Positions 8,897 to 50,366 of a stretch of DNA of 64,000 nt are shown here, piece by piece (the stretch's first letter is position 1; the number at the start of each line of letters is the position of its first letter). A model generated the notes under the pieces. It searched no databases, was not told where the DNA came from, and was given only the letters and a program-made list of their open reading frames with translations. A program made the position numbers and the translations under genes. Origin of the DNA: Candidatus Cloacimonadota bacterium (GTDB taxonomy: Bacteria; Cloacimonadota; Cloacimonadia; G963667145). Location of the stretch: contig OY781092.1 of NCBI GenBank assembly GCA_963676615.1, positions 973,745-1,037,744 of the forward strand, in the 5' to 3' direction.

Positions 8897-8909
8897 GGAG
8901 CAAACTGTT

Positions 8910-9621: not shown

Positions 9622-9661
9622 CTCGATAATTTCGCAACAAGCAAAACACACACAAAATTTT

Positions 9662-10582
9662 ATGCAAATCCAAACTCTTTGCCAAAACACCACTTGGCTC
9701 GCACCGCTTGCGGGATTCACCGATTTGCCCTATCGCCAAATCGCCAAAGAAAACGGCGTCGGCGTGCTAACCACCGAAATGGTCAGCGCCGCGGGACTCA
9801 CCTACAACCCCGCAGCCAGCTTGCCCTATGCGGACACAAAAAACGATAAATCTCCCATCGGAATCCAGCTCTTCGGCACTGAGCCAGACCATTTCCAAAA
9901 AGCCATTTCGATTTTGCCAAAAACAGATTTTTTGTGCATCAATATGGGATGCCCCGTGAAAAAAGTGGTCAAAACTGGCGCAGGCTCGGCTCTTATGGAC
10001 ACTCCCGAACTCGCAGCCGAAATCGTTCAGCGCTGCAAAAAACACCTGCCAAAAAACACTCCGCTGGTGGTCAAATTTCGCACGGGATTTTCCTCGGAAA
10101 ACTTTCTGAATTTCGGGCTGCAGATGCAAGAAGCTGGAGCCGACATCCTGATTTTGCACCCTCGCACCAAAGCGCAGATGTTCACAGGTCACAGCAATTG
10201 GTCGCAAATCAAGACGCTGAAAAAAAAATGCCAAGTGCCCGTAATCGGCAACGGCGATATTTTTTGCCAAGCTGACATCAAAAAAATGCAAGACGAAACC
10301 GCTTGCGACGGCGTGATGATTGGGCGAGGCGCTATCGGCAATCCTTGGATTTTTTCGGGAAAATCGTCCACAAAAAGCGAAAAACTGGCGACGATTAAAA
10401 GGCACTATCATCTCGCGATAGCTCATTATGGGCAAGAAAAAGGCGTCCGCACAATGCGAGCGCATATCGGCAAATACACCAAAAATCTGCAAGGCGGCAA
10501 CAAAGCCCGCCAAGCTATCAACGCTCTTATGAATTTGGAAGAGATTTTTTCGGTGCTGGACGAACTTTTTTTATCCTCTTAA
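9662..10582 (+). CDS. tRNA-dihydrouridine synthase
   Basis: It has the Dus-like TIM-barrel signature LAPLAGFTDLPYRQIA and later ICINMGCPVKKV (catalytic Cys). The start is chosen at the internal MQIQTL. The track ORF begins earlier. Confidence 0.8.
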   Translation: MQIQTLCQNTTWLAPLAGFTDLPYRQIAKENGVGVLTTEMVSAAGLTYNPAASLPYADTKNDKSPIGIQLFGTEPDHFQKAISILPKTDFLCINMGCPVKKVVKTGAGSALMDTPELAAEIVQRCKKHLPKNTPLVVKFRTGFSSENFLNFGLQMQEAGADILILHPRTKAQMFTGHSNWSQIKTLKKKCQVPVIGNGDIFCQADIKKMQDETACDGVMIGRGAIGNPWIFSGKSSTKSEKLATIKRHYHLAIAHYGQEKGVRTMRAHIGKYTKNLQGGNKARQAINALMNLEEIFSVLDELFLSS

Positions 10583-10761
10583 TCGGGGAAATTTTCTGCT
10601 TTTTGAACACCAAAATAGGGACTTATATTTTGCACGAAAAATGGTGACTGGCTTTTGCTCTTCTTCCCTCATTCCACCAAAAGAGGGAATCCATCTCTAA
10701 CACAATTCTGAAAAATGAAGTCAGGCGGCTACTTTTAACTTTTACCTAATAACTAATAACT

Positions 10762-10815
10762 GTCTGACACCAAAATAGAGGCTTATCATTTATTGCTTAT
10801 ATTTTGGTGTCAGAC
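10762..10815. terminator. Strong stem-loop at the convergent ends of the dus and lptF/G-family genes
   Basis: The two arms, GTCTGACACCAAAATA and TATTTTGGTGTCAGAC, are perfect 16-bp reverse complements with about a 22-nt loop. The structure overlaps the stop of the downstream minus-strand gene. Confidence 0.5.
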
Positions 10816-11909
10816 TAAACTTCCGCCCTGCTGGCGAACCAAAGCCCAATAAAAGTAAACAAAATATTCGGTCCCCAAGCAGCCCAAAAAGGCGAAAGAA
10901 CGCCAGTATAACCAAGATTTTGGCTAACTCGCAAAGCCGCCAAATAAACAAAACAAACCACCAAGCCGACCAAAAACACAACGCTTCTAGTTTTGCTACG
11001 AACAGAAGCTGACGCCATGGGAACGCTAAAAAACAAAATAATAAAATTCGCAAACGGGAAAGCCAATTTCGTCGCCAAATCGACACGCTCTTCCAAAGAT
11101 TTTTCGCCCACTTTCTCCTGCCGCTGAATATACTCATTTAGCTCCGAATAGCTCATCGCCAGCGGATCTTTGGAAGATTTAACAAAATCGATCGGCTTCA
11201 CATCCACAATCGGAATAACTTTTTTGTCCTTGAAATACTCCACCTCCGTGGGCATTCCGTCCTCAAATTTGCGGATATAGCACTTTTTAAAAAGCCACTT
11301 ATCTCCTTCCCAAACAGCCGATTGCGCCGATATCGTTTGCAGCAAACCGCCCGTTTTGGGGTCGTATTGCACAATGTCGATATTGTAGAGCTTTTTGCTA
11401 TAGCCGTCAAAAAAACCGATATTAAAAAACAGGTCGTTCTCGCCTTTATAGTTAATGTTGGCGCGGCGCTTGATGTCTTCCATCTTTTCGCCCCGAATTT
11501 TGACAATATAAGTGTGCTCGCGCAGCTGAATCGCTTTTGGCAAAACGGCTTCGCCGACCCACATCACAAAAAAACTATAAAAAAATCCAAAAATAAAAAT
11601 GGGCAAAACCATCCGCGCGATGCTGCGTCCAGAAGCCCGAACAGCGATCGACTCGTTAAATTTCGAGAGCTTATTCATCAAAAACAAACTCGCCAAAAGC
11701 ACCGCCACAGGCGATGTGAGGATAAAAAGATACGGCATATTGTAGAGAAAATACGAAAGCGAATCGTAGAGCGTCGCCCCATATTTCATAAACCTCGTCA
11801 GGCGGTCAAAAATGCTAATCACCACAAAAAGCACCGAAAAAGACAAACTAATCAGCACAAAATTTTTAATGTAAGAGCCCAAAATGTAGCGGTCTAAAAT
11901 CTTTATCAA
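10815..11909 (-). CDS. LPS export ABC transporter permease, LptF/LptG (YjgP/YjgQ) family
   Basis: A 364-aa protein with TM helices at both ends and a central periplasmic domain. It overlaps its paralogous neighbour by 4 nt. Confidence 0.75.
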   Translation of the reverse strand: MIKILDRYILGSYIKNFVLISLSFSVLFVVISIFDRLTRFMKYGATLYDSLSYFLYNMPYLFILTSPVAVLLASLFLMNKLSKFNESIAVRASGRSIARMVLPIFIFGFFYSFFVMWVGEAVLPKAIQLREHTYIVKIRGEKMEDIKRRANINYKGENDLFFNIGFFDGYSKKLYNIDIVQYDPKTGGLLQTISAQSAVWEGDKWLFKKCYIRKFEDGMPTEVEYFKDKKVIPIVDVKPIDFVKSSKDPLAMSYSELNEYIQRQEKVGEKSLEERVDLATKLAFPFANFIILFFSVPMASASVRSKTRSVVFLVGLVVCFVYLAALRVSQNLGYTGVLSPFWAAWGPNILFTFIGLWFASRAEV

Positions 11910-19730: not shown

Positions 19731-20153
19731 TTATTGATTAAGCGACTTCATCCCAAAGCAATAGACAACATGAGCGACATCAGATTTTCGATAAAATCGC
19801 TCCATGATTGGTATCCAAATTTTAAACAAAATCTTGGCTATCGCTTGTGAAAAGGGAATTTTCGCCTTGTTGGTTTGTTCTTTGGCAGGATCAGATTTCC
19901 AAGGCGGCGCATCCGCATATCCCGATTGCACAACGCTATACCCTTTTTTTGCGACCTCATCTTCCAACTCTTGCCTACTCATCCCTCTGCCAGAATGTTC
20001 CCGATTAGAATGCAAAAAAATCTTTCCTGTAGAGTACTTTTTTCGCAGTTTTTTACGCAAAACCTCAATCGAAACAATCTCAAAAATTTCGCCCAGACCA
20101 AAAATTTCACAACCATATTCCACATCCAAAGACAAACTAATCACCCTATCCAT
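19731..20153 (-). CDS. Hypothetical protein
   Basis: A 140-aa ORF with no family recognised. It lies in a local lower-GC patch. Confidence 0.3.
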   Translation of the reverse strand: MDRVISLSLDVEYGCEIFGLGEIFEIVSIEVLRKKLRKKYSTGKIFLHSNREHSGRGMSRQELEDEVAKKGYSVVQSGYADAPPWKSDPAKEQTNKAKIPFSQAIAKILFKIWIPIMERFYRKSDVAHVVYCFGMKSLNQ

Positions 20154-20186
20154 CTTTTGTAACCCTCAATATTTAACCCAAACAAT

Positions 20187-21158
20187 TCAGTCATCCAACT
20201 CTTTGATAACTGGCAAAATCCCAGGAATAGTAAAATATTTTTTCTCAATATTCAAGCTCTTCTTAAACTCACTACGGTAATACCAATCGCTACACAAAAA
20301 ATCTAGCTTTTTCTTAAACTCCTTCAGAGCAAAAAGTTGAAAAATAAATCTAGCGAAGGAGAAAACAAAATTTGGCAACTTATGCCACTTTCCATATCTC
20401 CCAGCACCTAAATTTTGACTAATAAAATCTGCCAAATCTGCCAAAATTACTGGCTCGTCATCAACAACAATATCTTCAAAACAATTAGAAAATTTTTCAT
20501 CTAAAATTTTCAAAAAAACTTCCACTAAAAGTTCAATGCTCGTTAAGTGAAACTTAACAGCTTTCCTCGGGAAAAACAGCTTTCTTTTGCGAACAAGGTT
20601 GATCAAAATGTTAGGAAACCCGTTTTTATCCTCTGTGCCATAAATGATACTAGGTCTGACGATATTGCAATTCAACCCTTTCTGCATCAAAATCTTCAAT
20701 CTTTTTTCTGCTTCAATCTTTGATTTATAATACAGGGAATCGCCTGACAAAACACTATTTTTACCCGCAGGAACTTTTGGAGGAATCGTGCCATAAACTC
20801 CCACAGAAGAGCAAAAAATAAACTTTGTTTTGTTTTGCAAAGCGCTTTTAGCCAAAATTTCGGTCGCCTCAACATTTGCCAAAAAATACTCTTTCTCAGA
20901 AAACTTCCGCTGCCTTAAAAGAGCTCCTATATGCAAAATTGCATAAAAATTTTCCGTTTCTAAATAGTTTTGCAAGCCGTCTAAATCGCACAAATCAATT
21001 TCAATAATTTTTATTTTCCCTGTAAATTCTTTTAATCTTTCAGGGGCAGTATTTGGTCGCACAATAGCTGTTACATTATATAAACCTGTCTTCAAAAGAG
21101 CCCGCGCAGTGTGTTTGCCGACAAATCCCGTAACGCCAGTGATTAGAACTTTCTTCAT
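20187..21158 (-). CDS. NAD-dependent epimerase/dehydratase (extended SDR family)
   Basis: The N-terminal Rossmann motif is ITGVTGFVGKH. It has the YxxxK region and lower-GC codon usage. Confidence 0.7.
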   Translation of the reverse strand: MKKVLITGVTGFVGKHTARALLKTGLYNVTAIVRPNTAPERLKEFTGKIKIIEIDLCDLDGLQNYLETENFYAILHIGALLRQRKFSEKEYFLANVEATEILAKSALQNKTKFIFCSSVGVYGTIPPKVPAGKNSVLSGDSLYYKSKIEAEKRLKILMQKGLNCNIVRPSIIYGTEDKNGFPNILINLVRKRKLFFPRKAVKFHLTSIELLVEVFLKILDEKFSNCFEDIVVDDEPVILADLADFISQNLGAGRYGKWHKLPNFVFSFARFIFQLFALKEFKKKLDFLCSDWYYRSEFKKSLNIEKKYFTIPGILPVIKELDD

Positions 21159-21161
21159 TTT

Positions 21162-21884
21162 TTATTTTGATTTTTTTTTAGAACAAATATACAAAAAACC
21201 TAAAGAAAAAAGTTTCGGAAAAATTTTGTGTATTCTTAAAAAAAGCAATATACTTTCAACAATCTGAAAAACAAATTTATCTTCTTTTCTCCTAAAAAAA
21301 CAATAATTTTTCTTCTCAATTTTAAAGCCCGCATCATCTAAAAGTTTTTCCAACTTCCCTTTGGAAAAAACCCTAATATGCTCAGAAAAAAGGTCTGTCC
21401 CATTTTTGTGCGAAATATCCATATAATCGACAAACTCACCCAAAACAAAGCGAATTCTATTAGCTATATTCAGCATATTCGGCACACAGACCACAAATTT
21501 CCCGTCGTCTTTCAAAGAAGCAAAAATAGAATTAACAGCCGCTTGAGGATCAAAAATATGCTCCAAAACATCCAAACAAAAAATAGCGTCAAACTCATTT
21601 TTTGAAAAAGGCAAAGCCTGTGTATTAAGGTTACAAACTTTGGCTTTAATTCCCAACTTGCTAGCTTTTTCAACAGCATTATTCGAAATATCTACACCGT
21701 ATGTTTGGTTATTTTCGATAAAAGGCGTTAACATAAAACCATCACCACAACCAATATCGAGAATTTTTTTATTACCCCCATCTTTCATAAAAGAGGAAAG
21801 CAAAATTTTTCTCACCCAATCGTGATAATAGCCACCGATATAAATCTTCTCTTTTTTCCAATACTCGTCATAATACTCTTTCAT
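21162..21884 (-). CDS. Class I SAM-dependent methyltransferase
   Basis: Motif I is ILDIGCGDGFM and the post-I acidic motif is FDAIFCLDVLEHI. It is adjacent to and co-oriented with the epimerase. Confidence 0.7.
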   Translation of the reverse strand: MKEYYDEYWKKEKIYIGGYYHDWVRKILLSSFMKDGGNKKILDIGCGDGFMLTPFIENNQTYGVDISNNAVEKASKLGIKAKVCNLNTQALPFSKNEFDAIFCLDVLEHIFDPQAAVNSIFASLKDDGKFVVCVPNMLNIANRIRFVLGEFVDYMDISHKNGTDLFSEHIRVFSKGKLEKLLDDAGFKIEKKNYCFFRRKEDKFVFQIVESILLFLRIHKIFPKLFSLGFLYICSKKKSK

Positions 21885-22027
21885 TTTATCTCCATTATTA
21901 GTCGTTCTAACTTTGAAATCGCAAATATACTGACAAGCAAATTTTCCACCTTTTTATTTTCGCTTGACATCATAGAGTCCGCTGCAAACTGTTATCAAAA
22001 TTATTTTTGTTAAAAAAGAGGGACAAA

Positions 22028-23432: not shown

Positions 23433-23855
23433 TTATCCGCTTTGGCAGGCGAGTTTTTCCAGCTCGTCCAACGCCTGACTTGGCGTTTTGGCAACGACAA
23501 AAAGCTCTTCCGCCGTCGAAAATTTTTTTGCGATTGTGAACTGGATAAATTCCAGCAGTTTGTCGTAAAATCCAGCCGTGTTCAAAAAAACAATCGGTTT
23601 GTGATGGTAGCCCAATTTTCGCAAAGTTATCATCTCCAGCACCTCCTCCAGCGTTCCGTATCCGCCCGGCAGAGCGATGAAAGCGTCGGCGTTGTCTTGC
23701 ATTACCGCCTTGCGAATCCGCATATTTTCGGTGAAAATCATCTGGCTAGCGCCGCGATAAGCCAGCTCTAGATTTTTCAACTTGTGTGGAATCACGCCCA
23801 AAGTGTAACCTCCTGCGCTCATAACGCTTCTGGCGAGCTCGCCCATCAGACCCAC
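23433..23855 (-). pseudogene. LOG-family (TIGR00730, cytokinin riboside 5'-monophosphate phosphoribohydrolase-like) gene, C-terminal fragment left by an IS insertion
   Basis: It begins (G)LMGELARS and contains PGGYGTLEEVLEMITL. The N-terminal Rossmann region is missing here and is found on the far side of the IS at 25185..25339. Confidence 0.7.
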
Positions 23856-23909
23856 ATTTCGGCACCGTCCAAAAAAGTGTGTCTAATCTCCAATTTGGTT
23901 TCCATTTTC

Positions 23910-24428
23910 TTAACTTTCTGGGAACAAAATTTTGTCAAATTTAAATTGATAAATCGGATAATTCAGATATTTATCGACCTTGTCCATCGCGACCTTGCTC
24001 AGCAGCAGTAGCACAGACTCATCGCTGGGCATCGAGTTCCTGATTTTCAAAACTTTCCGAAACTGTTTATTCAAATTTTCGATCCAATTTGTGGTGTAAA
24101 TCAGCCGCTGAATTCTGTGGTCAAACTCCAAAAAAGTGAAATAATAAACGACATCGTCTCTGTTTAATAACTTCTTGGTAAATCGATACTTATCTCCCCA
24201 TTTTTTCGCAAAATTATCCAAATTTTTCAAAGCAATTTCTTTCGTATAGCGTTCTTGTCCGACGCAAAAAATTTCCTTCAAATCGTCGCTAATTTCGCTT
24301 TTATCACTATTCCTGACCTTAGCTAATAGACTTCTTTTAAAGTGAGTTACACACTTTTGAAATTTCGCATTTTTAAAAACTTTGCTCACCACATTTTCCA
24401 GCCCAACAAGGCCGTCAGCCACGACCAA
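23910..24428 (-). pseudogene. IS256-family transposase, C-terminal part (split ORF)
   Basis: It begins VVADGLVGLENVVSKVFKNAKFQKCVTHFKRS, which continues the conserved core (DGxxGL ... FPxAxxQRC-like). Together the two parts give about 386 aa. Confidence 0.7.
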
Positions 24429-24437
24429 TTTTGTCGT

Positions 24438-25079
24438 TTACAAGCCTCGCGATTTTAGGCGATTAAACAAGAATTCCCAGCCAGCAGCGCTCTCGGTCGG
24501 GATATTTTCGAGCGCCAAAATGTCCCGACTTTTGTCCTCTCGGACGCCGATAACCACGCAAAACGCCTCAGTTTCAACACTGTCGAGCCGCCTCAATTTG
24601 GAATGTATGGCGTCAATCATAATAATCGGATAGTTTTTTTCTAGCGGCCTATTTCGCCAATTTGTCAACAATTCTTTGAATTCTTGGCTGATATTGCTGA
24701 TGGTCGATTTTTTGTAATTCGTGCCAAAAACATTTGCGAAAACATTCTCTATGTCTCTGGTAGACAAGCCTTTAGCATACAGCTGAAACGCCAATTCTCG
24801 TACTTCTTGCTCCTGCTTTTTCAAAATTTCCAAGATAAATGGATAAAATTGACCGAATCTGTCGCGCGGAATTTTGAATTGAATTTTGCCGCTGAGAGAT
24901 GAAAAACACCTGCTGCGATAGCCGTTGCCTTTGTTGTTTGAGCTTTTGTTTTCCGCCATAAAAGCCTGTCTTTCCAGCTTCATAAGGCTGTTAAAAACGA
25001 ACTCGATCAATTTATTCGCGCCATAATCATTGACATTTTCGTCTAAAATTTTTTGTAGTTGACTTGCGTTAAATCGCAT
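24438..25079 (-). pseudogene. IS256-family transposase, N-terminal part (split ORF)
   Basis: The sequence MRFNASQLQKIL ... AFQLYAKGLSTRDIENV ... IIMIDAIHSKLR matches the Transposase_mut pattern. The ORF terminates about 10 nt before the next ORF, which continues the same protein. Confidence 0.7.
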
Positions 25080-25184
25080 AAGAATCTCCTTTTTTGTTCT
25101 TTTTTTTATAAAAATTGGAGATTCTTTTTTTGTGTCTAGTTTTTTTTGCTGCAGACACACTTTTTTGGACAGTGCCCACATTTT

Positions 25185-25339
25185 CCACCGCCATAAACCA
25201 AACTATGCCCCCGAGTGACCATCTGCCTGCCCAAATCTTTAGCGGCGTCTTTGTAAGTTTGATCGATATTTTCCGCCGAAGCACAATAAACACAAATATT
25301 CATAACTTCCTCTGGTTTTGTCAAAAAAAGCACCTCCAC
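25185..25339 (-). pseudogene. LOG-family gene, N-terminal fragment
   Basis: The sequence ICVYCASAENIDQTYKDAAKDLGRQMVTRGHSLVYGGG then reads into the IS end. Joining it across one copy of the target-site duplication restores GGG-NV-GLMGELA, the LOG GGGxxGLMG motif. Confidence 0.7.
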
Positions 25340-25374: not shown

Positions 25375-27123
25375 TTACTCTTGTTTGCCCGATAGTTTGT
25401 TGCGTTTTTTGTAGTGCGTATGCAAATATTGGTGAGATTTGTGCGAGAGCGGCTCGCCCAAAAACTCTTTGTAAATTTTGGTAATCATCGGGTTGGTGTG
25501 CGAAGCCCTAAACTGGCAATCTTTGTCCTCTTTGTAGAGCGATTCGCCGCGTCTGGCACGGTCGGCAATGCTAGAGCCATACGGCTGTCCGCCGCCACCA
25601 ACGCATCCGCCAGGGCACGCCATTATCTCGATAAAGTGGTAAGATTTTTTACCCGACTGCACATCTTCGAGCAGCTTTTTGGCGTTGCCAAGCCCGTGCA
25701 CCACAGCCACATTCACCGTCAAAGTCGTCGAACTGTCTTTCAGCGGAATGTCCAAACTCGCTTCCTTAATTCCTTGCATTCCGCGCACAGCTTCCACCTC
25801 CATCTTGCCCAGCTCTTTGCCCGATAAAATTGCATAAGCTGTGCGAATTGCCGCTTCCATCACTCCACCTGTCGCACCAAAAATCGTCCCCGCACCTGTG
25901 TATTGTCCCATAAGCTGGTCGGCTTCCTCTTCTGGCAAATTTTTGAAATCCAAATTTGCCGCCTTTATCATCTTTACAAACTCCCGCACAGTCAGCACAC
26001 AATCGACATCCTGATAGCCAGAAGCGTTCATCTCGGGGCGCTTTGCCTCAAATTTTTTGGCTGTGCAAGGCATAATCGACACGCTGACAATATCTTTGGG
26101 GTCGATTTTCTCTTGCTCGGCAAAATAGGTCTTCACCATCGCGCCGAACATCTGTTGCGGCGATTTGCAAGTAGAAACATTATCGAGCAAATCTGGGAAA
26201 TAGGTCTCCACAAACTTCACCCAGCCAGGCGAACAAGAGGTGATAAGCGGTAAAGTTCCGCCCTCTTTTATCCGCTGAATAAGCTCCGAGCCCTCTTCCA
26301 TTATCGTCAAATCCGCAGCAAAGTTCGTATCGAAAACGCGGTCAAATCCCAGACGACGCAAAGCGGCATACATTTTGCCAACCGTCACTTTCGTCGGATC
26401 CATTCCAAACTCTTCGCCAAGAGCAGCCCGAACCGACGGCGCCTCTTGCACCACCACAATTTTGCTCGGGTCGAACAAAGCGTCTTGCACCTGCTCAATC
26501 TCACTCTTTTCCTTGAGCGCGCCCACAGGACAATACACCGTGCACTGCCCGCAGTTCACGCAAGGACTATCGGCAAGGCTCGTATCAAACGCCGCAGTCA
26601 CCTTGCTGGCAAAGCCACGACCGCTCACACAAAGAGCGTGAACTTTTTGAATATCGTTACACACCGTGATGCAACGCCCGCAATGGATGCACTTGTTGGT
26701 ATCTTTCACAATCGAAGGCCCCAAATTATCCACCTTCGCCCGCTCGAAAATCGGCTCGTAATCCGACTCGGGAATGTCCAAATAGTTGATCAGCTCCTGC
26801 AACTCGCATTTGCCGTTTTGGTCGCAAGTCGGGCATTTCACATCGTGTTCCAACAAAATCAAAGACAAGAGCTCTTTGCGAAGTTTGCGAATTTCTGGCG
26901 AATCGGTAACTATCGACATTCCGTCTGCCACAGGCGTAACACACGCCCGCTTTAGCGGACCCACACCCTCTATCTTCACCACACAAACTCCACAATTTCC
27001 AGTAGGAGTCAAATCTTTGTGATAACACAAACTCGGGATGTAATGTCCGCTCTGCTCAGCCGCTTCCATAATGGTCTGACCAGCCTTAGCCTCTACCGTT
27101 TTTCCGTTTATCGTTATTTGCAT
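25375..27123 (-). CDS. hydA: [FeFe]-hydrogenase catalytic subunit (M3-type, CpI/HydA-like)
   Basis: It has an N-terminal plant-type [2Fe-2S] domain and [4Fe-4S] motifs (CIHCGRCITVC). The H-cluster motifs are L1 SCSPGWV, L2 MPCTAKKFE and L3 EIMACPGGCVGGGGQP. Confidence 0.9.
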   Translation of the reverse strand: MQITINGKTVEAKAGQTIMEAAEQSGHYIPSLCYHKDLTPTGNCGVCVVKIEGVGPLKRACVTPVADGMSIVTDSPEIRKLRKELLSLILLEHDVKCPTCDQNGKCELQELINYLDIPESDYEPIFERAKVDNLGPSIVKDTNKCIHCGRCITVCNDIQKVHALCVSGRGFASKVTAAFDTSLADSPCVNCGQCTVYCPVGALKEKSEIEQVQDALFDPSKIVVVQEAPSVRAALGEEFGMDPTKVTVGKMYAALRRLGFDRVFDTNFAADLTIMEEGSELIQRIKEGGTLPLITSCSPGWVKFVETYFPDLLDNVSTCKSPQQMFGAMVKTYFAEQEKIDPKDIVSVSIMPCTAKKFEAKRPEMNASGYQDVDCVLTVREFVKMIKAANLDFKNLPEEEADQLMGQYTGAGTIFGATGGVMEAAIRTAYAILSGKELGKMEVEAVRGMQGIKEASLDIPLKDSSTTLTVNVAVVHGLGNAKKLLEDVQSGKKSYHFIEIMACPGGCVGGGGQPYGSSIADRARRGESLYKEDKDCQFRASHTNPMITKIYKEFLGEPLSHKSHQYLHTHYKKRNKLSGKQE

Positions 27124-27127
27124 TTTC

Positions 27128-28684
27128 TTACTCTCCTATAAACTTTTCAAATTCATCTCCAAAATATTTGACCATACTGCCAATGGGCATCGCAGGAGAT
27201 TGTCCCAGTGCGCAAAAAGAGGTTTTTTGCATCAAGCTGGAAACTTCGTCCAACCTTTTCACATCAGCGCGGCAGCCTTCTCCAGCCAATATTTTGTCTA
27301 TCAAACCAACCAAAACTTTGCAACCAATCCGACAAGAGCTACATTTTCCACAAGATTCGTGCAAAAAGAAGTTCAAAATAGAACGCAAAACTTTGAGCAT
27401 ATTTGCTTTTTCGCTCATAATCAAAATCGCCCCAGAGCCAAGCACCGCAGACTCTTTGGACAGATTTTCAAAATCGAGCTTAATCTGCAGAAGCTCCTTT
27501 GGCAAAAACATTCCCGCAGCTCCGCCAACCAAAGCGGCTTTGAACTTCTTGTCCTCTTTGAGTCCGCCGCCGTATTTAAAGATAATCTCCGACAAAGTCG
27601 TGCCCATAGGCACCTCTATCAAGCCGGGACTGTTCACATCGCCCAAAATCGTGTAAACCTTTGTTCCGCAAGAGCCAGGCGTGCCAATCTCGGCAAACTT
27701 CGCTCCGCCATTTTCCACAATCTCTGGCAAATTGGAGAGCGTCTCGACATTGTTAACCACCGTCGGTTTGCCCCAAAGTCCGCTCACGCCAGGATAAGGA
27801 GGCTTCGAGCGAGGATTACCTCTGCCGCCCTCCAGCGAATTCAAAAGCGCCGTCTCCTCACCGCAAACATAAGCACCAGCGCCAACTTTGACCATCACAT
27901 CAAAATCGAAACCGCTACCCAAAATATCTTTGCCCAAAAGCCCATACTCTCTGGCTTGCGCAATCGCTTTTTTGAGCCGATTAATGCAAAGCTTATACTC
28001 GCCACGAATGTAGATAAATCCAGTGTCCGCGCCAGCCACAAAACCCGCTATCATCATTCCCTCGAGCAGCTTGTGCGGGTCGCCTTCCATAATCAGCCGA
28101 TCCTTAAAAGTTCCCGCTTCGCCCTCGTCGGCGTTCACGACGATATACTTGTGCTTTTCGTCCAATTTGGCAGTCAGCTCCAGCTTCATTCCCGTGGGAA
28201 ATCCAGCACCGCCACGACCACGCAAATTGGAAGTTTTAATCTCTCGCAAAACCTCGTCTCTGCCCAGCTGCAAAGCTTTTCCCAAAGCTTGATAACCGTC
28301 CACGGCGATATACTCGTCGATAGATTCTGGGTCAATTTTGCCCGAATTTTTAAGCACAATTCGGTGTGAAAAAGCAAAATCAACCTCTTGTTTGGCTGGC
28401 TGACTCAAACTTTTCACAGGTCGCCCTTTAAGGAAATGTTCCAAAACAATCTGCGGAACATCCTCCACGGTGATATTGTGATACAAAAGATTATCGGGAT
28501 AAACCAGAAAATGCACGCCTTTGGACACATAGCCCAGCGTCCCTGTCTCCAGCACACCGACCTCTTTCTCCAAACCGTTTTTCGCCAGCTCGTCGCGCAT
28601 AGCCTGAATGACCGCCTTGACGCCCTTGTCCAGAGTGTGATCGTCAACTACAAAAAGAATGTGAGTTCTATAAAACATTTTCAC
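27128..28684 (-). CDS. NuoF-like flavoprotein subunit with a Cys-less N-terminal thioredoxin-like domain
   Basis: It has the FMN/NADH-site motif GRGGAGFPTGMK and the N3 [4Fe-4S] motif ESCGKCSSCRIGC. The N-terminal roughly 90 aa align with thioredoxin-like [2Fe-2S] domains but lack the Cys ligands. There is no C-terminal ferredoxin domain. Confidence 0.8.
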   Translation of the reverse strand: MKMFYRTHILFVVDDHTLDKGVKAVIQAMRDELAKNGLEKEVGVLETGTLGYVSKGVHFLVYPDNLLYHNITVEDVPQIVLEHFLKGRPVKSLSQPAKQEVDFAFSHRIVLKNSGKIDPESIDEYIAVDGYQALGKALQLGRDEVLREIKTSNLRGRGGAGFPTGMKLELTAKLDEKHKYIVVNADEGEAGTFKDRLIMEGDPHKLLEGMMIAGFVAGADTGFIYIRGEYKLCINRLKKAIAQAREYGLLGKDILGSGFDFDVMVKVGAGAYVCGEETALLNSLEGGRGNPRSKPPYPGVSGLWGKPTVVNNVETLSNLPEIVENGGAKFAEIGTPGSCGTKVYTILGDVNSPGLIEVPMGTTLSEIIFKYGGGLKEDKKFKAALVGGAAGMFLPKELLQIKLDFENLSKESAVLGSGAILIMSEKANMLKVLRSILNFFLHESCGKCSSCRIGCKVLVGLIDKILAGEGCRADVKRLDEVSSLMQKTSFCALGQSPAMPIGSMVKYFGDEFEKFIGE

Positions 28685-29108
28685 CTCCCTGCAGATTTTT
28701 GAGCAACCCCTCCAGCTTCTCTTGGGTCATATTTCCGTAAACTTTATCGTTGACCAGCACCACAGGAGCGTTACCACACACGCCCAGACACTGACAAGCT
28801 TCCAAAGTCACATCGTTCATTTTTTTGGTCTTTTTTTTCAGATAATCAAGCAAATTGTCCGAGCCCTGCACAACGCAATGAGGCGACTGACACACCTTGA
28901 TTACAAACTTTCCTCTGGATTCAAGCGCAAACATCGAATAAAAACTCGCCACAGAATACACCTGATTATAAGGCATCTTCAAATAATGTGCCACCTCTTT
29001 CAGAGCATCAACGCTCAGATGCTGCGTAGGGCTAGCGTCCTGAGCTATATGCAAAATCTGCAAAATATTCTCAGGCTTTGGTGGATATTTCGTAAAATCT
29101 GTCAACAC
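28668..29108 (-). CDS. NuoE-like [2Fe-2S] subunit (HydC/HndA-like)
   Basis: It has the thioredoxin-like [2Fe-2S] Cys pattern: CQSPHCVVQG, then CLGVCGNAP. Confidence 0.8.
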   Translation of the reverse strand: MLTDFTKYPPKPENILQILHIAQDASPTQHLSVDALKEVAHYLKMPYNQVYSVASFYSMFALESRGKFVIKVCQSPHCVVQGSDNLLDYLKKKTKKMNDVTLEACQCLGVCGNAPVVLVNDKVYGNMTQEKLEGLLKNLQGGENVL

Positions 29109-29139
29109 AACCTCCTTTTAGTTTCCACAACTTTCAACA

Positions 29140-30965
29140 TTACAATTCTTCACTAACTTCGCCTTGCCCAGGCAACTTTTTGATCGCTCCCACAGGGCAA
29201 ACCTCCATACAATTTCCGCACTTAACACAATCCGCCTGCGAAATCTCAAACTTCTCCTGGCGACTGCCGTGAATGCTGCTAACTGGGCACTTCTTCGCGC
29301 AAAGCGAGCAGCCCACACACTTGTCCTTATTTATCTGAAAATGCAAAAGATCAGGACAAACAAGCGCAGAACATTTTTTCTCATTTATATGCTCTTCATA
29401 CTCGTTTCGGAAATGTTTAATCGTTGACAACACTGGATTTGGCGCGGTCTGTCCCAAGCCGCACAAAGCGGTTTTCTTGATCACATTGCCCATTCGCTCC
29501 AGCTCTTGCAAATCTTCCATTGTCCCCTTTCCAGAAGTGATTTTTTCCAAAATATTGTGCAAATGCCGAAGTCCAATACGACACGGCGAACACTTGCCGC
29601 ACGACTCTTCCATCGTAAATTCCAAGAAAAATTTGGCAACATTCACCATACATTTGCTATCGTTCATCACAATCACGCCGCCAGAGCCCATCATCGCGCC
29701 CTCGGCAATCAGCGAATCGTAATCGATAGGCACATTCCAATGCTCTTTGGTCAGACAGCCGCCAGAAGGTCCGCCCAGCTGCACAGCCTTAAACTCGCCG
29801 CTGCTCATACCTCCGCCAACTTTATCGATAAGCTCGCCAATCGTCACGCCCATCGGCACTTCCACAAGCCCCGTATTTTTCACATCGCCCGTCAGCGCAA
29901 AAACTTTCGTGCCTTTGCTTTTTTCGGTGCCCATCGCCGCAAACCACTTGCCACCTTTTTCGATAATCGGCGGCACATTCGCCAAAGTCTCTACATTATT
30001 GATGTTCGTCGGCTTGTCCCAAAGTCCGCTAATAGCAGGAAACGGCGGTTTCGACCTCGGATGCCCTCTTCTTCCTTGAATCGACGAAATCAGAGCGGTC
30101 TCCTCTCCGCAAACAAAAGCGCCCGCTCCTGTGCGCACCTCCATATCAAAGCTAAAGCCACTGCCCAAAATATTCTCGCCCAGAAGCCCATACTCACGAG
30201 CCTTCTCAATCGCTAGCTTCACCCGCTCAATCGCCAGGGGATACTCCGCGCGGATATAAAAAAAGCCCTTCGTCGCTCCAATGGCATACGCGGCTATCAT
30301 CATCCCCTCCAGCACCTTGTGCGGATCGCCCTCCAAAACAGACCGATCCATAAAAGCGCCTGGGTCTCCCTCATCTCCGTTACAAATCAAATACTTAACG
30401 CCGTCATCGCTCTTGGCTTTTCGGGCAAATGTCCACTTCAAAAAAGTCGGGAAACCGCCACCGCCACGACCACGCAAGCCAGAAATCTCAATCTCCTTAA
30501 TCACATCCTCGGGGCTCATCGACTCCAGCACCTTCGCCAGCGAGCCGTAGCCGTCAACAGCCACATACTCTTCCAGCGACTCCGGATCGATATAACCGCA
30601 ATACTCCAGCGCAACTTCGTCTGACTCTTGTAAAACGGCACATCCTCCACATTCCGCACAACATTCTCGGCAGCCGAGCCGTCCCTCATCAAAAGCCGCT
30701 CAACCACGCGCCCTTTAACAAAATGCTCCTCGACAACCTCTTTCATATCCTCAGGTTTGAGCTGCTTATAAAAAACGCCCTCGGGATAAATCAGCATCAA
30801 AGGTCCAAAATCGCAAGGTCCCATACAGCCAGTCTCGATGATGTTAACCTCGCTCTCAATCCCAAACTCCCGCACCTGTTTTTGCAGCTCTTGCTTTATC
30901 TTTTTGGCTCCAGCAGAAACACAACCCGAGCCAAAACACAGCAAAACATCGATTCTCTTTAACAT
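29140..30965 (-). CDS. HydB-like NuoF subunit (N-terminal thioredoxin-like [2Fe-2S], NuoF core, C-terminal 2x[4Fe-4S]), interrupted by an apparent frameshift near 30620
   Basis: The track splits it into two ORFs. ORF 30516..30965 is a [2Fe-2S] thioredoxin-like domain (CFGSGC ... CMGPCDFGP). ORF 29140..30564 is the NuoF core (GRGGGGFPT ... SCGKCSPCRIG) plus CVGCSLCAKKCP ... CVKCGNCMEVCP. The NuoF reading frame continues upstream of 30564 without a stop, homologous to the paralogue, but in a different frame from the upstream ORF. The 30564 start of the track ORF is a GTG codon within this continuous frame. Confidence 0.65.
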
Positions 30966-30976
30966 CCTAACCTTCT

Positions 30977-31330
30977 CTAGATTAAAAATTCGCTAATAAC
31001 ATTGCCGTTAACAATATGCTCGCTCACCACTCTTTTCGCCTTCTCGGCGCTCATCTGACAATAAGTCACGCTCTTGCCATCCTTCTGCATCACATCCACC
31101 ACAGGCTCCATACTCGACGCCCCTTTCTCTCCGCTCTGGGTAACGACGACGCCCGAAATATCTCGTTTGGAAATCTCATCCAAAAACGCCCGCATCACCT
31201 CTCGTGCGCCCATAGCAATTCCCGAAGTCCCCATTCCAACGACAATCTTGTATTTGTAGTCCGAATTTCGCAAGTTCATCTTTTTTTGAACTTCTTCCTT
31301 TAACTTTTTCAAATCAGCTAACGATTTCAT
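30977..31330 (-). CDS. Small thioredoxin-like ferredoxin-fold protein lacking the [2Fe-2S] cysteine ligands
   Basis: KIVVGMGTSGIAMGAREV ... VTQSGEKGASSMEPVV aligns with the Cys-containing CFGSGCVSAGAKKI ... ETGCMGPCDFGPLM domain of the adjacent gene. The Cys residues are replaced by Met, Thr, Gly or Ser. Confidence 0.5.
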   Translation of the reverse strand: MKSLADLKKLKEEVQKKMNLRNSDYKYKIVVGMGTSGIAMGAREVMRAFLDEISKRDISGVVVTQSGEKGASSMEPVVDVMQKDGKSVTYCQMSAEKAKRVVSEHIVNGNVISEFLI

Positions 31331-31872
31331 CTATCCTCCAATTTTCCAATCTGCTGGCAAAGAATCTCTTCCATAAAATTTCTTATCTCTGGCTGATCCA
31401 AAGGCACGCCATCTAGCTCCTTCTTCACCAGCCGAGTATCAAAACAATCTTTTTCTCCATTCACACTGCTACGCAAAACAAAATCAACTTTTGGATGCGC
31501 CACAATGCAGGTAACCATCGTCAAGGCGACATCGCCAAGCGGCAAAGCGTCGATGCTGGAAACCACAAAACTCGCCTTCAAAATAGTGCCTTTGCCCAGC
31601 TCGGACTGCAAATCAAAACTACCGCCCGACAAAGTGGCACTCTGGGCAAACAGCGGAATGCCCAAACCGACCTTCTTTTTGCGAAACGCCTTGCTCGTAT
31701 AAAAAGGGTCAACCGCCGCCTTCAGCGTCTGCTCGTCCATCCCTTTGCCATTATCCTCCACGCTCAAACTCAAAACATCCTCTTTGCGCGAAAAACAACA
31801 CTCAATCAAAGTAGCACCAGCACTCACCGAATTTTGGAGAATATCTAAAAGGTGTAAAGATATATCTTCCAT
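31327..31872 (-). CDS. GHKL/HATPase_c-type ATP-binding protein (anti-sigma-factor / serine-kinase-like)
   Basis: It has the N-box/G1 motif SVEDNGKGMDE and G2 GLGIPLFAQSA. At 181 aa it has no His-kinase dimerisation domain. Confidence 0.7.
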   Translation of the reverse strand: MEDISLHLLDILQNSVSAGATLIECCFSRKEDVLSLSVEDNGKGMDEQTLKAAVDPFYTSKAFRKKKVGLGIPLFAQSATLSGGSFDLQSELGKGTILKASFVVSSIDALPLGDVALTMVTCIVAHPKVDFVLRSSVNGEKDCFDTRLVKKELDGVPLDQPEIRNFMEEILCQQIGKLEDR

Positions 31873-31905
31873 AAATTTGCGACTCCCTTATCTGCTCACC
31901 AAAAA

Positions 31906-32382
31906 CTAATACTTACTCAAAATCTCTTTAATCTGCCCTTTAGAAGCAATTTTACCATAAGTATCTTCGCCGATAACCACCACTGGCGCAAGCGAACACG
32001 CACCCACGCAGCGCACCGACGACAGCGAGAACTTGCCATCCTGAGTCGTTTGCCCAAGGCTCACGCCAAGCTCCTGCTCAAACATCTTAATCACATTCGC
32101 AGCGCCCTTCACATAACACGCAGTTCCCGTGCAAATATTGATAACGACCTCGCCGCGCGGCTTCATCGAAAAGAAATTATAAAAAGTCACCACGCCGTAG
32201 ATTTTGTTCACAGGCAAATCCATCTGCTCGGCAACAAACGCCTGCACCTCTTTCGGCAAATAGCCAAACAACCTTTGCGCCTCACGCAAAACCTCGATCA
32301 AAGGGTCTCTCAGACCTTTTTTCTCTTGGATAATCTCCTTCAGCTCCGCATAAAGTTTATTCTCACACTTCTCCACATTCAC
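31906..32382 (-). CDS. NuoE-like [2Fe-2S] subunit (HydC/HoxE-like)
   Basis: Its Cys motifs are CTGTACYVKG and CVGACSLAPV. Confidence 0.8.
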   Translation of the reverse strand: MNVEKCENKLYAELKEIIQEKKGLRDPLIEVLREAQRLFGYLPKEVQAFVAEQMDLPVNKIYGVVTFYNFFSMKPRGEVVINICTGTACYVKGAANVIKMFEQELGVSLGQTTQDGKFSLSSVRCVGACSLAPVVVIGEDTYGKIASKGQIKEILSKY

Positions 32383-32389
32383 CCCCTAC

Positions 32390-33103
32390 TTAAATCGTTT
32401 TTGTCTCAAACTCATTTTTTTGTAAAGCTATTTTTAAACTTTCAAAATTCAGCTCGTCCAGACTATACTCCGTATATCTTTTCCCAAAATCTTTTCGATA
32501 ATGAGCGTCGGAATTTCGCACCAGCGGCAACCCGTATTTTTCCCATGGCGCAAAATCTCCCACAACCTCCAGCGCATCAAAATCCACATCCTGCGGCAAA
32601 AATCCCAGCTGCGACTTTGTGCTAAAGCTATCGGCGTCCACATGCGAGGCGACCAAAAAGCCGCCATACTGCGCAACTTTGGCAGAAGTCGTCTGCAAAT
32701 CCCAGCTCACCGAATTCAGCAAAAGCTTGCCCTCAAACCCAAGCACCATCTCGTTTTCGTCGATAAGCACCTGATCGCCAAAAAAACCTTTGCGATTTTG
32801 AATGTCAGGCAGCGCCCGATACAGCTCCGCATCAAAAGCCGCCGCAGTCTTGCAGTCGGGAAAATACGCCAAAAGGTGCACCTCCAAACTGGTTTGAATC
32901 TCCACGCCGTAAATAAAATGGATGCCAAATTTTTGGGCAATACTCGCATAAGCCAAAGAGTTCGCCAGACTATTATGCTCCGTGATAGAGAGCATCCCAA
33001 AGCCCAAATCTCTGGCTTTTTCAAACAAAAGCGAGGGCGACATCGAATAATCGCCACACGGCGACAAAACAGAATGCAAATGCAAATCGGCCTTGCAAAC
33101 CAT
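32390..33103 (-). CDS. PHP-domain (polymerase/histidinol-phosphatase-like) metal-dependent phosphoesterase
   Basis: It begins ADLHLHSVLSPCGD and has SITEHNSL, the PHP His-rich motifs. Confidence 0.7.
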   Translation of the reverse strand: MVCKADLHLHSVLSPCGDYSMSPSLLFEKARDLGFGMLSITEHNSLANSLAYASIAQKFGIHFIYGVEIQTSLEVHLLAYFPDCKTAAAFDAELYRALPDIQNRKGFFGDQVLIDENEMVLGFEGKLLLNSVSWDLQTTSAKVAQYGGFLVASHVDADSFSTKSQLGFLPQDVDFDALEVVGDFAPWEKYGLPLVRNSDAHYRKDFGKRYTEYSLDELNFESLKIALQKNEFETKTI

Positions 33104-34723
33104 CTATTGCACCGCCACCAACTTATACAAAATCCCCGAAATCTGAAAAGAGTTATAAGGACTGCTCACAAGCACAATCCCCTCTTCGTTTGCCTTCTCA
33201 ATCACCTCTGGCGTCGGCATCTTATTCTTGGCAAAAATTATCGCATCAATCTCCAAGAGCGACGCCACAGCAATCGAATTTTGATGCTGCATAATCGTCA
33301 CCCACACTTGGCTATCGCCAGCCGAAGCCATCACATCCGAAAGCAAATCGCCCGCATAAACGCTGCTAACTCTCACGCTCGACAAATCTTTCTCCTTCGT
33401 CAAAAGTTTGCCGCCAATATACTCAATCAACTTCGCCAAAGACATCTCTTTTTTCTCCTGCAAATTAAAAACACAATCCGAAAACTTCGCCTTTCCACTC
33501 ACAATCTCCTTCGCCAAAACCTCGCAAGTCGGACACCCGCAAATCCCGCAATTTTTACCCGGCAAAAGCTTTTTAATGTCCTCATACTTTTTCATTTTGG
33601 CGATTTTTTCTTTAATCGACAAATTATCCACCTCGCGCGGCACAGGCGTAATCTCATTTTTTATCTCGAACTCTTTGTTTTTGAACAACTTATAAAAAAG
33701 CTCTTTGTCGATTTTTTCGAACTTCACATCCGAAGAAGCGATACGATTTGCCGCAATAAACGGATTTTCCACATTCAAATCTCCGCCGACACAACCGTTG
33801 GTGCAACTGCGCAGCACCACATAATCGTAATAATCCAGCTGACCGCCCTCGATTTTGGACAAAATATCTTTCGCACCCTTAAAACCGCTAACCGCCAAAG
33901 TCTTAAAATTGCTCTCCTTCACCTGATTGCCCTCGGAAATATAAATCCCCCAATTCTCGTGATTTATAACGCCACCCGAGTTTTGCACATCCTTTTTCTC
34001 GTCCTGCTTCTGATTATAACAAATATTCATAATCCGATTGTAAACATCGCGCATCGCCAAAGCGCCGTCCTGAAAAGATTTATCTTGCCCAACAGGATTT
34101 TTGAAAGCGGTAATTTGCGACGAACACGGAGCCACCGAAAAAATTCCAATCTCGTCTGGCTTGAACCCTTTTTTTTCTGCCAAATAGTGCCGATAGTAGG
34201 CGCTCAAAATCGCCACAGAAGACTCCAGCGGCACAATATGCTCCAGCAGCGACGGGTACTTAACCCTTATCAGCCGCACAATCGCAGGACAATTCGACGA
34301 AATCAAAGGGCGAATTTTGGCATCGTTCAACTTTTGCGCAAAAATCGGCGCCATCACTCCAGTAATCATATTTTCATCGATCACCTTGTCGAAACCCAGC
34401 TGCAAAAGGGCGTCCGTCGCCACCGCATAATCGATTTTGGGCGGAAGCTGCCCGATAAAAACATTCGACAAAAGCGCCACACGATATTTAAACCTAGAAT
34501 CGTGCAAGAGCTCATCGAAATCGTCGTAAACGCTTTTGATGGCTCCCACAGGGCAAATTTTGATGCACTGTCCGCAGCTGATGCACTTGTGCTGATACAG
34601 CTCGACCTTGCCGTCGCGGAGCCTGATGGCAGACACTGGGCAAACCCGAATACACCTCGTGCAACCGATGCACTTCTCCTTATCCTCCTGCACCGAGCCG
34701 CTAAAATTCACAATATTTTCCAT
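33104..34723 (-). CDS. Sensory [FeFe]-hydrogenase-like protein (HydS/HfsB-type) with a C-terminal DRTGG-like domain
   Basis: It has an N-terminal 2x[4Fe-4S] (CIGCTRCIRVCP, CISCGQCIKICP). The H-cluster-like motifs are degenerate: SSNCPAIV (L1 with one Cys), APCSSQ (L2) and CTNGCVGG (L3). An extra CGICGCPTC motif is present. The C-terminal roughly 110 aa (AGDLLSDVMA ... VLVSSP) resemble the adjacent DRTGG protein. Confidence 0.7.
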   Translation of the reverse strand: MENIVNFSGSVQEDKEKCIGCTRCIRVCPVSAIRLRDGKVELYQHKCISCGQCIKICPVGAIKSVYDDFDELLHDSRFKYRVALLSNVFIGQLPPKIDYAVATDALLQLGFDKVIDENMITGVMAPIFAQKLNDAKIRPLISSNCPAIVRLIRVKYPSLLEHIVPLESSVAILSAYYRHYLAEKKGFKPDEIGIFSVAPCSSQITAFKNPVGQDKSFQDGALAMRDVYNRIMNICYNQKQDEKKDVQNSGGVINHENWGIYISEGNQVKESNFKTLAVSGFKGAKDILSKIEGGQLDYYDYVVLRSCTNGCVGGDLNVENPFIAANRIASSDVKFEKIDKELFYKLFKNKEFEIKNEITPVPREVDNLSIKEKIAKMKKYEDIKKLLPGKNCGICGCPTCEVLAKEIVSGKAKFSDCVFNLQEKKEMSLAKLIEYIGGKLLTKEKDLSSVRVSSVYAGDLLSDVMASAGDSQVWVTIMQHQNSIAVASLLEIDAIIFAKNKMPTPEVIEKANEEGIVLVSSPYNSFQISGILYKLVAVQ

Positions 34724-47255: not shown

Positions 47256-50200
47256 TTACACTCTCTCCACTTGCAAATAAATCTCAAGCCCGTTGATATC
47301 CCACTTTTGCATCCCCTGGCTAGAGTCCGCGCGCTCAAAACAGTCCGCCAAAGTCTCCTTTTTCAAATCCTCCAAATATCCAGCCAGCATCTGCGCCAAA
47401 TCCTCGCTGTAAAAATACCGCACCCGAATTCTATCCATCACCTGAAACCCAGAATTTTTCCGCGTAAACTGAATCTTGTTGATCAGCTCGCGGGCATACC
47501 CCTCGGCAATCAGCTCGTCCGACAGCTCCGTCTGCAGCGCCACAAAAAAATCGCCACCACTCTCCACCTGATAACCCACAAGGCTCTGAAGCTCCAGCGT
47601 CAAATCGTCCTTGTCCAGCCGATACTCTGCTTCCTCCAGCCGCACCGCAAAATCTTCGCCCTTGGCAAAAGCGCTCTGAATCGCCGCAACATCCGCCGAC
47701 TGCAAAAAATCTTGCAAAGCTTTCATCTGCTTGCCCACTTTCTTGCCCACATTCTTAAAATTCGGCTTAGCAAAATACGACACAAAATCTTCGTCCACAA
47801 AATCGACCTTTTTGATGTTAATCTCCTCCAAAATAAGCTCCTGCATCCCAGCAACCACGCTCTGCAACTTCTTGGGCAACTTAATTTGGGCAAGCGGCTG
47901 TCGCACCTTGAGCCCAGCATTATTCCGCGCAAATCGTCCCAGCGACACCACCTGAATGACCGTATCCATCTGCTTTTCCAGCTCCAAATCGATGGCAGCC
48001 AAATCACTCTTTGGAAAAGCCGCCAAATGCACCGACTCTTCGCCCGTGAGGCTACAATAAATATGATCCGCCAAAAACGGCGAAACTGGCGCAATCAGCT
48101 GCGTGAGCCGTGTCAAAACGGTCTGCAAAGTGTAATACGCATCCTTTTTATCATCGCTAAGCTCAAACGACCAAAACCGTTCCCGCGAGCGCCGAACATA
48201 CCAATTTGAAAGCTCCTCGCACGCAAAATTCTGAATCGCACGCACCGCCTTGGTCAAATCGTAGGCGTCCATCCGATCCTGCACATACGCAATCAAACCG
48301 TTGAGCTTGGAAAAAATCCAGCGGTCGATACTCGCGCTCACCTCCCGCGGCTTCTCGACTTTGTAACCGTCGATATTCGCATAAGTCGCAAAAAACGAAT
48401 AAACATTTTTGAGCGTGCCAAAAAATTTACCAGCCACCTCTTTCACGCCGCTAGCATCAAACTTCGTCGGCACCCACGGCGGACTGCCCGCCAAAAGATA
48501 CCACCGCACAGCGTCCGCTCCAAACTCGTCCATCACCTCAAACGGATTGACCGTGTTACCCTTGGACTTGCTCATCTTTTTGCCATTTTTATCCAAAATC
48601 AAATCGTTCACCAGCACATTTTTGTAAGGCGTTTGCCCTTTGATTATCGTCGAAATCGCCAGCAGAGAATAAAACCAGCCTCTTGTCTGGTCGATACCCT
48701 CACAAATAAAATCGGCAGGAAAAAGCTCGTCGAAATTTTCTTTGTTCTCAAACGGATAATGATGCTGGGCAAACGGCATCGCACCGCTGTCAAACCAGCA
48801 ATCTATCACCTGCGGCACTCGATGCATCACGCCGCCGCATTTTGGACACTCCAGCACAATATCGTCCACAAACGGCTTGTGCAACTCTGGATTTTCTGGC
48901 ACCGCAGAACCGTCGGAAGCCAGCCGTCCTTTCGCACGCAAATCAGCCTTTGAGCCGACACTTTCTTGAGCAGCACAATCATCGCAAACCCAAACATTCA
49001 GCGGAGTCCCCCAAAAACGATCCCGCGAAATCGCCCAATCCGTATTATTCTCCAGCCAAGAACCAAAACGCCCTTCGCCCACAAACGCAGGCGCCCAGTT
49101 GACCTTTTTATTCTCCGCAATCATTTTGTCTTTATAGTCGGTCGTCTTGATATACCAGCTCATCCGCGCGTAATACAAAAGCGGGCTATCGCAGCGCCAG
49201 CAGAAAGGATAGGAGTGTTTAAAACTCTCTTTCTTCAGAAACAAACCGCGCTCCTTGAGCGAAATCACGATCTGCTTCTCGACCTCCTTATCCTTGACAA
49301 AATATCCCTCCAACATCGGAAAATTCGCGTTATACTTGCCATCTTCGCCCACGGTATGCACCAGCGGAATGCCATTTTTTTTGCACACCTGATAATCGTC
49401 CTCACCATACATCCCCGCAGTATGCACAATCCCAGTTCCGTCCTCGGTCGTCACAAAATCGCCCGCGTAAATCTTATGCGAGTTCTCGTTCTGCAAACTC
49501 TCCACCGCAAAAAGCGGCTCGTACTCTTGCCCCAAAAGCGCATCGCCCTTGAACTCCTGCACGATTTTATACTCATCGTCCAGCACCTTCAGCAAATTTT
49601 TCGCCAAAATATAAAACTCGCCCTGGCACTCAACCTTCACATAATCGATCTGCGCTCCAACCACCAAAGCCACATTCCCCGCAAGCGTCCACGGCGTCGT
49701 CGTCCACGCCAAAAAATAGGTGTTCGCCTGATCTTTTTTGCGAAATTTGATAAAAACCGACGACTCGCTAACATCTTTATAACCAAGAGCCACCTCGTGC
49801 GAAGACAGCGGCGTCCCGCATTTCGGGCAAAACGGCACGACCTTGTGTCCCTGATACAAAAGCCCCTTTTCCCACATCTGCTGCAGTAGCCACCAAACCG
49901 ACTCTATATAATCGTTGTCCAGCGTGATATACGGATTGTCCAAATCGATTTCGTAGCCCATCTGCTGCGTCATCTTCCGCCACAACTTCTCGTAGCTAAA
50001 AACCGACTCGCGGCACTTTTGGTTAAACTCCTGCACGCCATAATCCAAAATCTTCTTCCGATCGTCCAACCCCAGCTGCTTCTGCACCTCAATCTCCACA
50101 GGCAAACCGTGCGTATCCCAGCCGGCCTTTCGCTTCACACGAAAACCCTGCATCGTCTTATATCGACACACCGTATCCTTGATCGAGCGCGCCATCACAT

Positions 50201-50366
50201 GATGAATTCCGGGCTTGCCGTTGGCAGTAGGAGGTCCCTCAAAAAAGATAAAATCTTCGCTTCCCTTGGCACTGCTCTTGCCCAAAATATCTATCTGCTC
50301 CCATTTTTTCGCCACTTCCGCCTCAATCCTAGCGCTCTTTTTTTTGGGATCAATCGGTTCATACAT
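47256..50366 (-). CDS. ileS: Isoleucine--tRNA ligase
   Basis: A 1036-aa protein with HIGH (PTANGKPGIHH) and KMSKS (KMSKSKGN) motifs, an editing domain and Zn-finger Cys residues. Confidence 0.9.
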   Translation of the reverse strand: MYEPIDPKKKSARIEAEVAKKWEQIDILGKSSAKGSEDFIFFEGPPTANGKPGIHHVMARSIKDTVCRYKTMQGFRVKRKAGWDTHGLPVEIEVQKQLGLDDRKKILDYGVQEFNQKCRESVFSYEKLWRKMTQQMGYEIDLDNPYITLDNDYIESVWWLLQQMWEKGLLYQGHKVVPFCPKCGTPLSSHEVALGYKDVSESSVFIKFRKKDQANTYFLAWTTTPWTLAGNVALVVGAQIDYVKVECQGEFYILAKNLLKVLDDEYKIVQEFKGDALLGQEYEPLFAVESLQNENSHKIYAGDFVTTEDGTGIVHTAGMYGEDDYQVCKKNGIPLVHTVGEDGKYNANFPMLEGYFVKDKEVEKQIVISLKERGLFLKKESFKHSYPFCWRCDSPLLYYARMSWYIKTTDYKDKMIAENKKVNWAPAFVGEGRFGSWLENNTDWAISRDRFWGTPLNVWVCDDCAAQESVGSKADLRAKGRLASDGSAVPENPELHKPFVDDIVLECPKCGGVMHRVPQVIDCWFDSGAMPFAQHHYPFENKENFDELFPADFICEGIDQTRGWFYSLLAISTIIKGQTPYKNVLVNDLILDKNGKKMSKSKGNTVNPFEVMDEFGADAVRWYLLAGSPPWVPTKFDASGVKEVAGKFFGTLKNVYSFFATYANIDGYKVEKPREVSASIDRWIFSKLNGLIAYVQDRMDAYDLTKAVRAIQNFACEELSNWYVRRSRERFWSFELSDDKKDAYYTLQTVLTRLTQLIAPVSPFLADHIYCSLTGEESVHLAAFPKSDLAAIDLELEKQMDTVIQVVSLGRFARNNAGLKVRQPLAQIKLPKKLQSVVAGMQELILEEINIKKVDFVDEDFVSYFAKPNFKNVGKKVGKQMKALQDFLQSADVAAIQSAFAKGEDFAVRLEEAEYRLDKDDLTLELQSLVGYQVESGGDFFVALQTELSDELIAEGYARELINKIQFTRKNSGFQVMDRIRVRYFYSEDLAQMLAGYLEDLKKETLADCFERADSSQGMQKWDINGLEIYLQVERV

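Follow-up and report, generated by a model that had tools for sequence, protein, structure and literature searches.

Flavoproteins of the HydB type are represented among solved structures by several hydrogenase chains, i.e., 7t2r_B ('NiFe hydrogenase subunit B'), 7q4v_B/8a5e ('Iron hydrogenase HydB'), 8a6t_B/8bew ('Electron bifurcating hydrogenase subunit HydB') and 7p5h_B ('Fe-hydrogenase, subunit beta'). Known HydB/HndC proteins share the domain order thioredoxin-like [2Fe-2S], Complex1_51K, SLBB, NADH_4Fe-4S and 2xFer4, and their genes stand in an operon with those for a NuoE-like protein (HydC) and for the [FeFe] hydrogenase HydA. Both features recur in the locus described here, which belongs to a Cloacimonadota bacterium whose chromosome is circular and approximately 1.57 Mb long. 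The window, by which we mean the whole stretch of 64,000 nucleotides that was analysed, carries a hydrogenase operon with the following genes in transcription order:

25375..34723, minus strand: hydrogenase operon, from HydS-like to HydA
34723..33104, minus strand: HydS-like sensory hydrogenase
33103..32390, minus strand: PHP
32382..31906, minus strand: NuoE1
31872..31327, minus strand: HATPase
31330..30977, minus strand: HndB-like
30965..29140, minus strand: HydB1, the split gene
29108..28668, minus strand: NuoE2
28684..27128, minus strand: NuoF2
27123..25375, minus strand: HydA

This order is kept in L001-L009, which are close relatives. Among distant Cloacimonadota, loci L010, L011 and L014 share it from HydS to HydA, and locus L126, which is cut at both ends, shares it from PHP to NuoF2. 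Two NuoE/NuoF pairs are present in the operon (27128..32382), NuoE1 with HydB1 and NuoE2 with NuoF2. The homology between HydB1 and the paralogue at 27128..28684, proposed in a preliminary description of this DNA, is borne out by an identity of approximately 46-52%. NuoF2 has no C-terminal 2x[4Fe-4S] domain, and no PF01257 match was found in its N-terminal region. Both pairs are retained in the four distant loci L010, L011, L014 and L126 (57-67% identity), and L005 shows the arrangement as well. The second pair is absent from L015, the one Bacillota relative examined. On the Synergistales contig CAYPIU010000029.1, a NuoE-HndB-HydB block occurs twice (444..3058 and 8698..11348) with near-identical match scores, as a result of duplication or of a repeat in the assembly.

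The HydB1 gene is interrupted in the window, and the relevant features are:

29140..30965, minus strand: HydB/HndC-like flavoprotein gene of the [FeFe]-hydrogenase operon, interrupted in this assembly; one added A gives 608 aa
30516..30965, minus strand: upstream fragment, ORF of 149 aa; the genuine part, thioredoxin-like [2Fe-2S] domain plus linker, covers residues 1-117
29140..30564, minus strand: downstream fragment, ORF of 474 aa with the NuoF core and the C-terminal 2x[4Fe-4S] domain
30616..30617, minus strand: lesion, AA in the window (ACGAAGTT) versus AAA in the other assemblies of the same clone (ACGAAAGTT)

The two ORFs lie in different frames exactly as the preliminary description had claimed, and three-frame translation shows that a -1 frame change is required to join them. 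Because the Pfam domains are divided between them, the ORFs can be regarded as halves of one HydB/HndC-type gene. The 149-aa ORF matches PF01257 (thioredoxin-like [2Fe-2S]) over residues 4-80 and contains the four cysteines of the N-terminal [2Fe-2S] domain, within CFGSGC and CMGPC; its final 32 residues are an out-of-frame tail. The NuoF core of the 474-aa ORF comprises the FMN/NADH site, the SLBB domain and the N3 [4Fe-4S] cluster, with matches to PF01512 (Complex1_51K, 4.7e-47), PF10531 (SLBB) and PF10589 (NADH_4Fe-4S, 1.4e-34). Residues 410-462 of the same ORF match Fer4_21, Fer4 and Fer4_7, corresponding to the C-terminal 2x[4Fe-4S] ferredoxin domain. This ORF begins at GTG 30564, the earliest possible start, with no in-frame start codon upstream. 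Its frame was said to continue upstream without a stop, and translation agrees: it is open as far as approximately 30700, reading ...DEVALEYCGYIDPESLEEYVAVDGY... All cofactor motifs of HydB1 are intact in the window, and the rest of the gene contains no second lesion.

The site of the break was located by a MAFFT DNA alignment of the window HydB1 with four orthologues, which contains a single internal gap, of 1 nt and in the window sequence. On the minus strand, the base is missing between 30616 and 30615, where the orthologues read CAG ACG AAR GTN GCT and the window reads CAGACGAA-GTTGCG. The lesion is a contraction of a homopolymer from A3 to A2, or from T3 to T2 on the plus strand. The interval first proposed for the break, 30618..30625, was close, the real site at 30616/30615 being 2-3 nt away. 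The proposed connection with a T-run does not hold, since the TTTT at 30636..30633 lies 15 nt upstream and is uninvolved, the lesion sitting in an A run. Across the junction the repaired protein reads ...PFYKSQTKVALEYCGYIDPES...; its 608 residues agree with the length originally predicted and with that of the intact allele P0121. The peptide PFYKSQ-DEVALEY suggested for the junction has to be replaced by PFYKSQTK|VALEY, as follows from P0121 and the site comparison.

P0121 was found through a homologue search, in which the 474-aa fragment was identical (100%) to protein P0006 on a contig of 1,570,356 bp, the contig to which the window belongs. The 90%-identity cluster of P0006 has one further member, P0121 (608 aa), on a contig of 1,570,370 bp. 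Its sequence is that of the two window fragments linked via ...KSQTKVALEY... It is encoded on the circular contig ena:ERZ25074360:ctg24561_899x_c (1,570,370 bp, 899x coverage) and also on a Logan contig whose only source is run ERR14749983. When the 149-aa and 474-aa fragments were looked up as exact proteins, no contig was on record, and a look-up of the 762-aa ORF at 51177..53465 gave no match either, probably due to a different called start.

To compare the nucleotide sequences, three stretches of the 899x contig were aligned by blastn with window positions 1906-40965 and 43477-64000 (59.6 kb). There were 0 mismatches and exactly 1 gap, at the hydB site. Three Logan contigs from ERR14749983 likewise showed 0 mismatches and a sole gap at this site. 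The comparators and the window are the same clone. At the lesion, the 899x and Logan contigs both have AAA (ACGAAAGTT) and encode an uninterrupted 608-aa protein, so the frameshift is reproduced in neither; apart from the missing base, the window HydB1 is 100% identical to the intact allele, with no extra substitutions. The preliminary description had reasoned that raw reads with an extra nucleotide restoring a single 608-aa ORF would make the break a simple sequencing error, and an extra A of this kind is indeed what the 899x and Logan assemblies contain. The intact alleles in the same clone therefore support an assembly indel. The difference of 14 bp between the two genome contigs (1,570,356 vs 1,570,370) was considered as proof of many small indels and rejected as too strong a reading, because one event elsewhere could explain it.

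The comparators also allowed us to judge another disrupted gene in the window, a LOG-family gene (Lysine_decarbox family) interrupted by an insertion sequence:

23860..25174, minus strand: IS256-like element of approximately 1.3 kb (Pfam Transposase_mut, PF00872)
25303..25175 and 23855..23433, minus strand: fragments of the LOG-family gene flanking the element
24438..24440, minus strand: in-frame TAA in the transposase of the element, a substitution and not an indel

The element has terminal inverted repeats (CACTGTCCAAAAAAGTGTGTCT and a near-complement) and a 9-bp target duplication (AAATGTGGG). In four relatives (L001, L002, L006 and L009) the LOG-family gene directly follows hydA, and in L003 two other genes intervene. 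The comparators, including the 899x assembly, share both the insertion and the nonsense codon; the occurrence of the insertion in the 899x assembly marks it as a real gene disruption. The transposase pieces of 247 and 172 aa are in the same frame and cover Pfam profile positions 11-223 and 228-376, and this copy of the element looks genuinely decayed. A tblastn search with ORFs of the relatives identified no other indel frame breaks in the window, the LOG-family gene with its insertion being the only other disrupted gene.

Elsewhere in the window, low-GC islands occur at 50000..57000, 1..2000 and 20000..22000 (31-35% GC vs approximately 46% elsewhere). The largest, at 50000..57000, encodes DUF87 (HerA-like), NurA and an N6_N4 DNA methyltransferase, and may have been acquired as an island for defence or DNA processing. 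A linear contig of 18,255 bp from the same ENA set (ena:ERZ25074360:ctg22551_176x_l, 176x) matches window positions 52943..62287 as a near-perfect palindrome, with arms running from 62113 down to 52943 and then from 53203 up to 62287, and with a truncated DUF87/HerA-like gene. No long inverted repeat was found at its turn-around point. The palindrome may be a fold-back artefact of assembly or library preparation, or may reflect an inverted duplication that a subpopulation really carries.

Beyond the clone itself, a scan of genome contigs found only related species, with 79-84% amino acid identity, and a scan of metagenome contigs found nothing above 67% identity and so provided no same-species comparator. 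Comparison with orthologues, which the preliminary description had recommended, gave a uniform result: all seven from related Cloacimonadota species (79-84% amino acid identity) are in frame at the site, with ACG AAR GTN, and the window alone has a 1-nt gap. The closest species-level relatives are OZ245797.1, OZ223280.1, OY762940.1, OY762943.1 and OY781061.1. Together with the JGI contig Ga0366841_1014855, these five share the gene order of the window and carry an orthologue of 607-609 aa without interruption, again with 79-84% identity. On the JGI contig, hydA (9800..11524) is called as pieces of 466 and 75 aa with the Fe_hyd_SSU domain separate, which may reflect another frameshift or an assembly error in that different assembly.

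Three explanations had been put forward for the break, namely an assembly indel, pseudogenisation and recoding. The intact alleles in two same-clone assemblies favour the indel, and we consider it very probable that the frameshift is a consensus error, from assembly or polishing, in which A3 was called as A2 in the long-read metagenome assembly of the window. A lone difference in homopolymer length, with no substitution, among assemblies of the same clone is what long-read consensus errors typically look like, and the version that restores the frame comes from a very deep (899x) assembly and from a second assembler; both facts argue for a technical indel. Pseudogenisation is unlikely. It would require a real 1-base deletion, fixed or dominant in the sampled population, by which HydB1 was either inactivated very recently or divided, leaving a free [2Fe-2S] domain and a NuoF core that restarts at GTG 30564, the latter outcome being tolerated via the second NuoE/NuoF pair. 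A deletion of this kind is what the deposited sequence literally contains, its effect could be buffered by the paralogous NuoE2/NuoF2 pair, and gene decay is possible in this clone given the genuine lesions nearby, i.e., the IS256-like insertion in the LOG-family gene and the TAA in the transposase. However, the two other assemblies of the clone are intact, with 0 substitutions over 59.6 kb, and HydB1 has acquired neither a second lesion nor added substitutions. A restarted core would moreover lack an N-terminal stretch of approximately 18 conserved residues (TKVALEYCGYIDPESLEEY). Conservation across Cloacimonadota extends to both flavoprotein paralogues, and because both NuoE/NuoF pairs are kept in the four distant loci, loss of HydB1 would be unexpected. 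That a clonal lineage has just inactivated or split one of two flavoprotein modules conserved in the phylum appears improbable. If it had, the deletion would amount to a knock-out made by nature, from which the NuoE2/NuoF2 pair could be seen to be sufficient, and also to a minor strain-level loss of function in a duplicated module, involving no new mechanism.

Recoding, in which the 608-aa protein would arise from the two frames by programmed -1 ribosomal frameshifting or by slippage during transcription, can be given practically no weight. Programmed -1 frameshifting is known in dnaX and in IS3-family transposases, and the HydB1 site shares with these only the -1 direction. This is indeed the frame change required, and the fused product would be a normal HydB. 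However, CAG ACG AAG TTG contains neither an X XXY YYZ heptamer nor a long A/T run; a slippery site was not found in AGT CAG ACG AAG TTG CGC, the nearest run being the TTTT 15 nt upstream, which is out of register. The 93 nt downstream, inspected for a stimulatory RNA structure, fold no better than shuffled sequences (MFE -34.5 kcal/mol vs a shuffle mean of -30.6, z = -1.31, 23/200 shuffles as good). Furthermore, the shift is not conserved, since the seven orthologues and the same-clone assemblies are all single-frame. The lack of a slippery heptamer, of significant downstream structure and of conservation effectively refutes recoding.

We conclude that the consensus error is the best explanation and that the sampled population almost certainly carries no such mutation, the cause being technical. 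A homopolymer of three A's would have been read as two during consensus building or polishing of the long-read metagenome assembly, so that the frameshift, although present in the sequence, is most probably absent from the organism. The actual gene would then encode an uninterrupted HydB/HndC-type flavoprotein of 608 aa, predicted to have a thioredoxin-like [2Fe-2S] domain at the N-terminus, then a NuoF core carrying FMN and [4Fe-4S], and a 2x[4Fe-4S] ferredoxin domain at the C-terminus, in the setting of a putative electron-bifurcating-type [FeFe]-hydrogenase operon. HydB1 should be annotated as intact (608 aa). For quality control this matters, as annotators of the metagenome-assembled genome might otherwise enter the hydrogenase flavoprotein as pseudogenised or as split, and the uncorrected frameshift might prompt the inference that electron-bifurcating H2 metabolism was lost.

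Long-read metagenome assemblies are known to retain indels by which predicted proteins are truncated, a class of error that has been quantified as 'frameshift errors' (PMC13087279). The HydB1 break resembles the IDEEL-type truncated-protein signal (PMC13087279) in that a single-base homopolymer difference, with no substitutions, truncates a conserved protein. Unlike in a typical HiFi/ONT homopolymer error, the run is short here, only 3 nt, which counts against a technical cause. With respect to the protein family, residues 3-597 of P0121 align as one colinear stretch with 7t2r_B, 7q4v_B, 8a6t_B and 7p5h_B (E 6e-252 to 7e-207), and the window sequence as written is, unlike P0121, not one continuous polypeptide. 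Judged by its sequence, the intact allele is a standard HydB/HndC flavoprotein of electron-bifurcating hydrogenases, with bifurcation as its predicted function, and the HydB1 gene itself is nothing new. It differs from known HydB in that the Cloacimonadota operon has an extra NuoE/NuoF pair between hydB and hydA, and in that the gene in the window is cut by a single missing base in this assembly.
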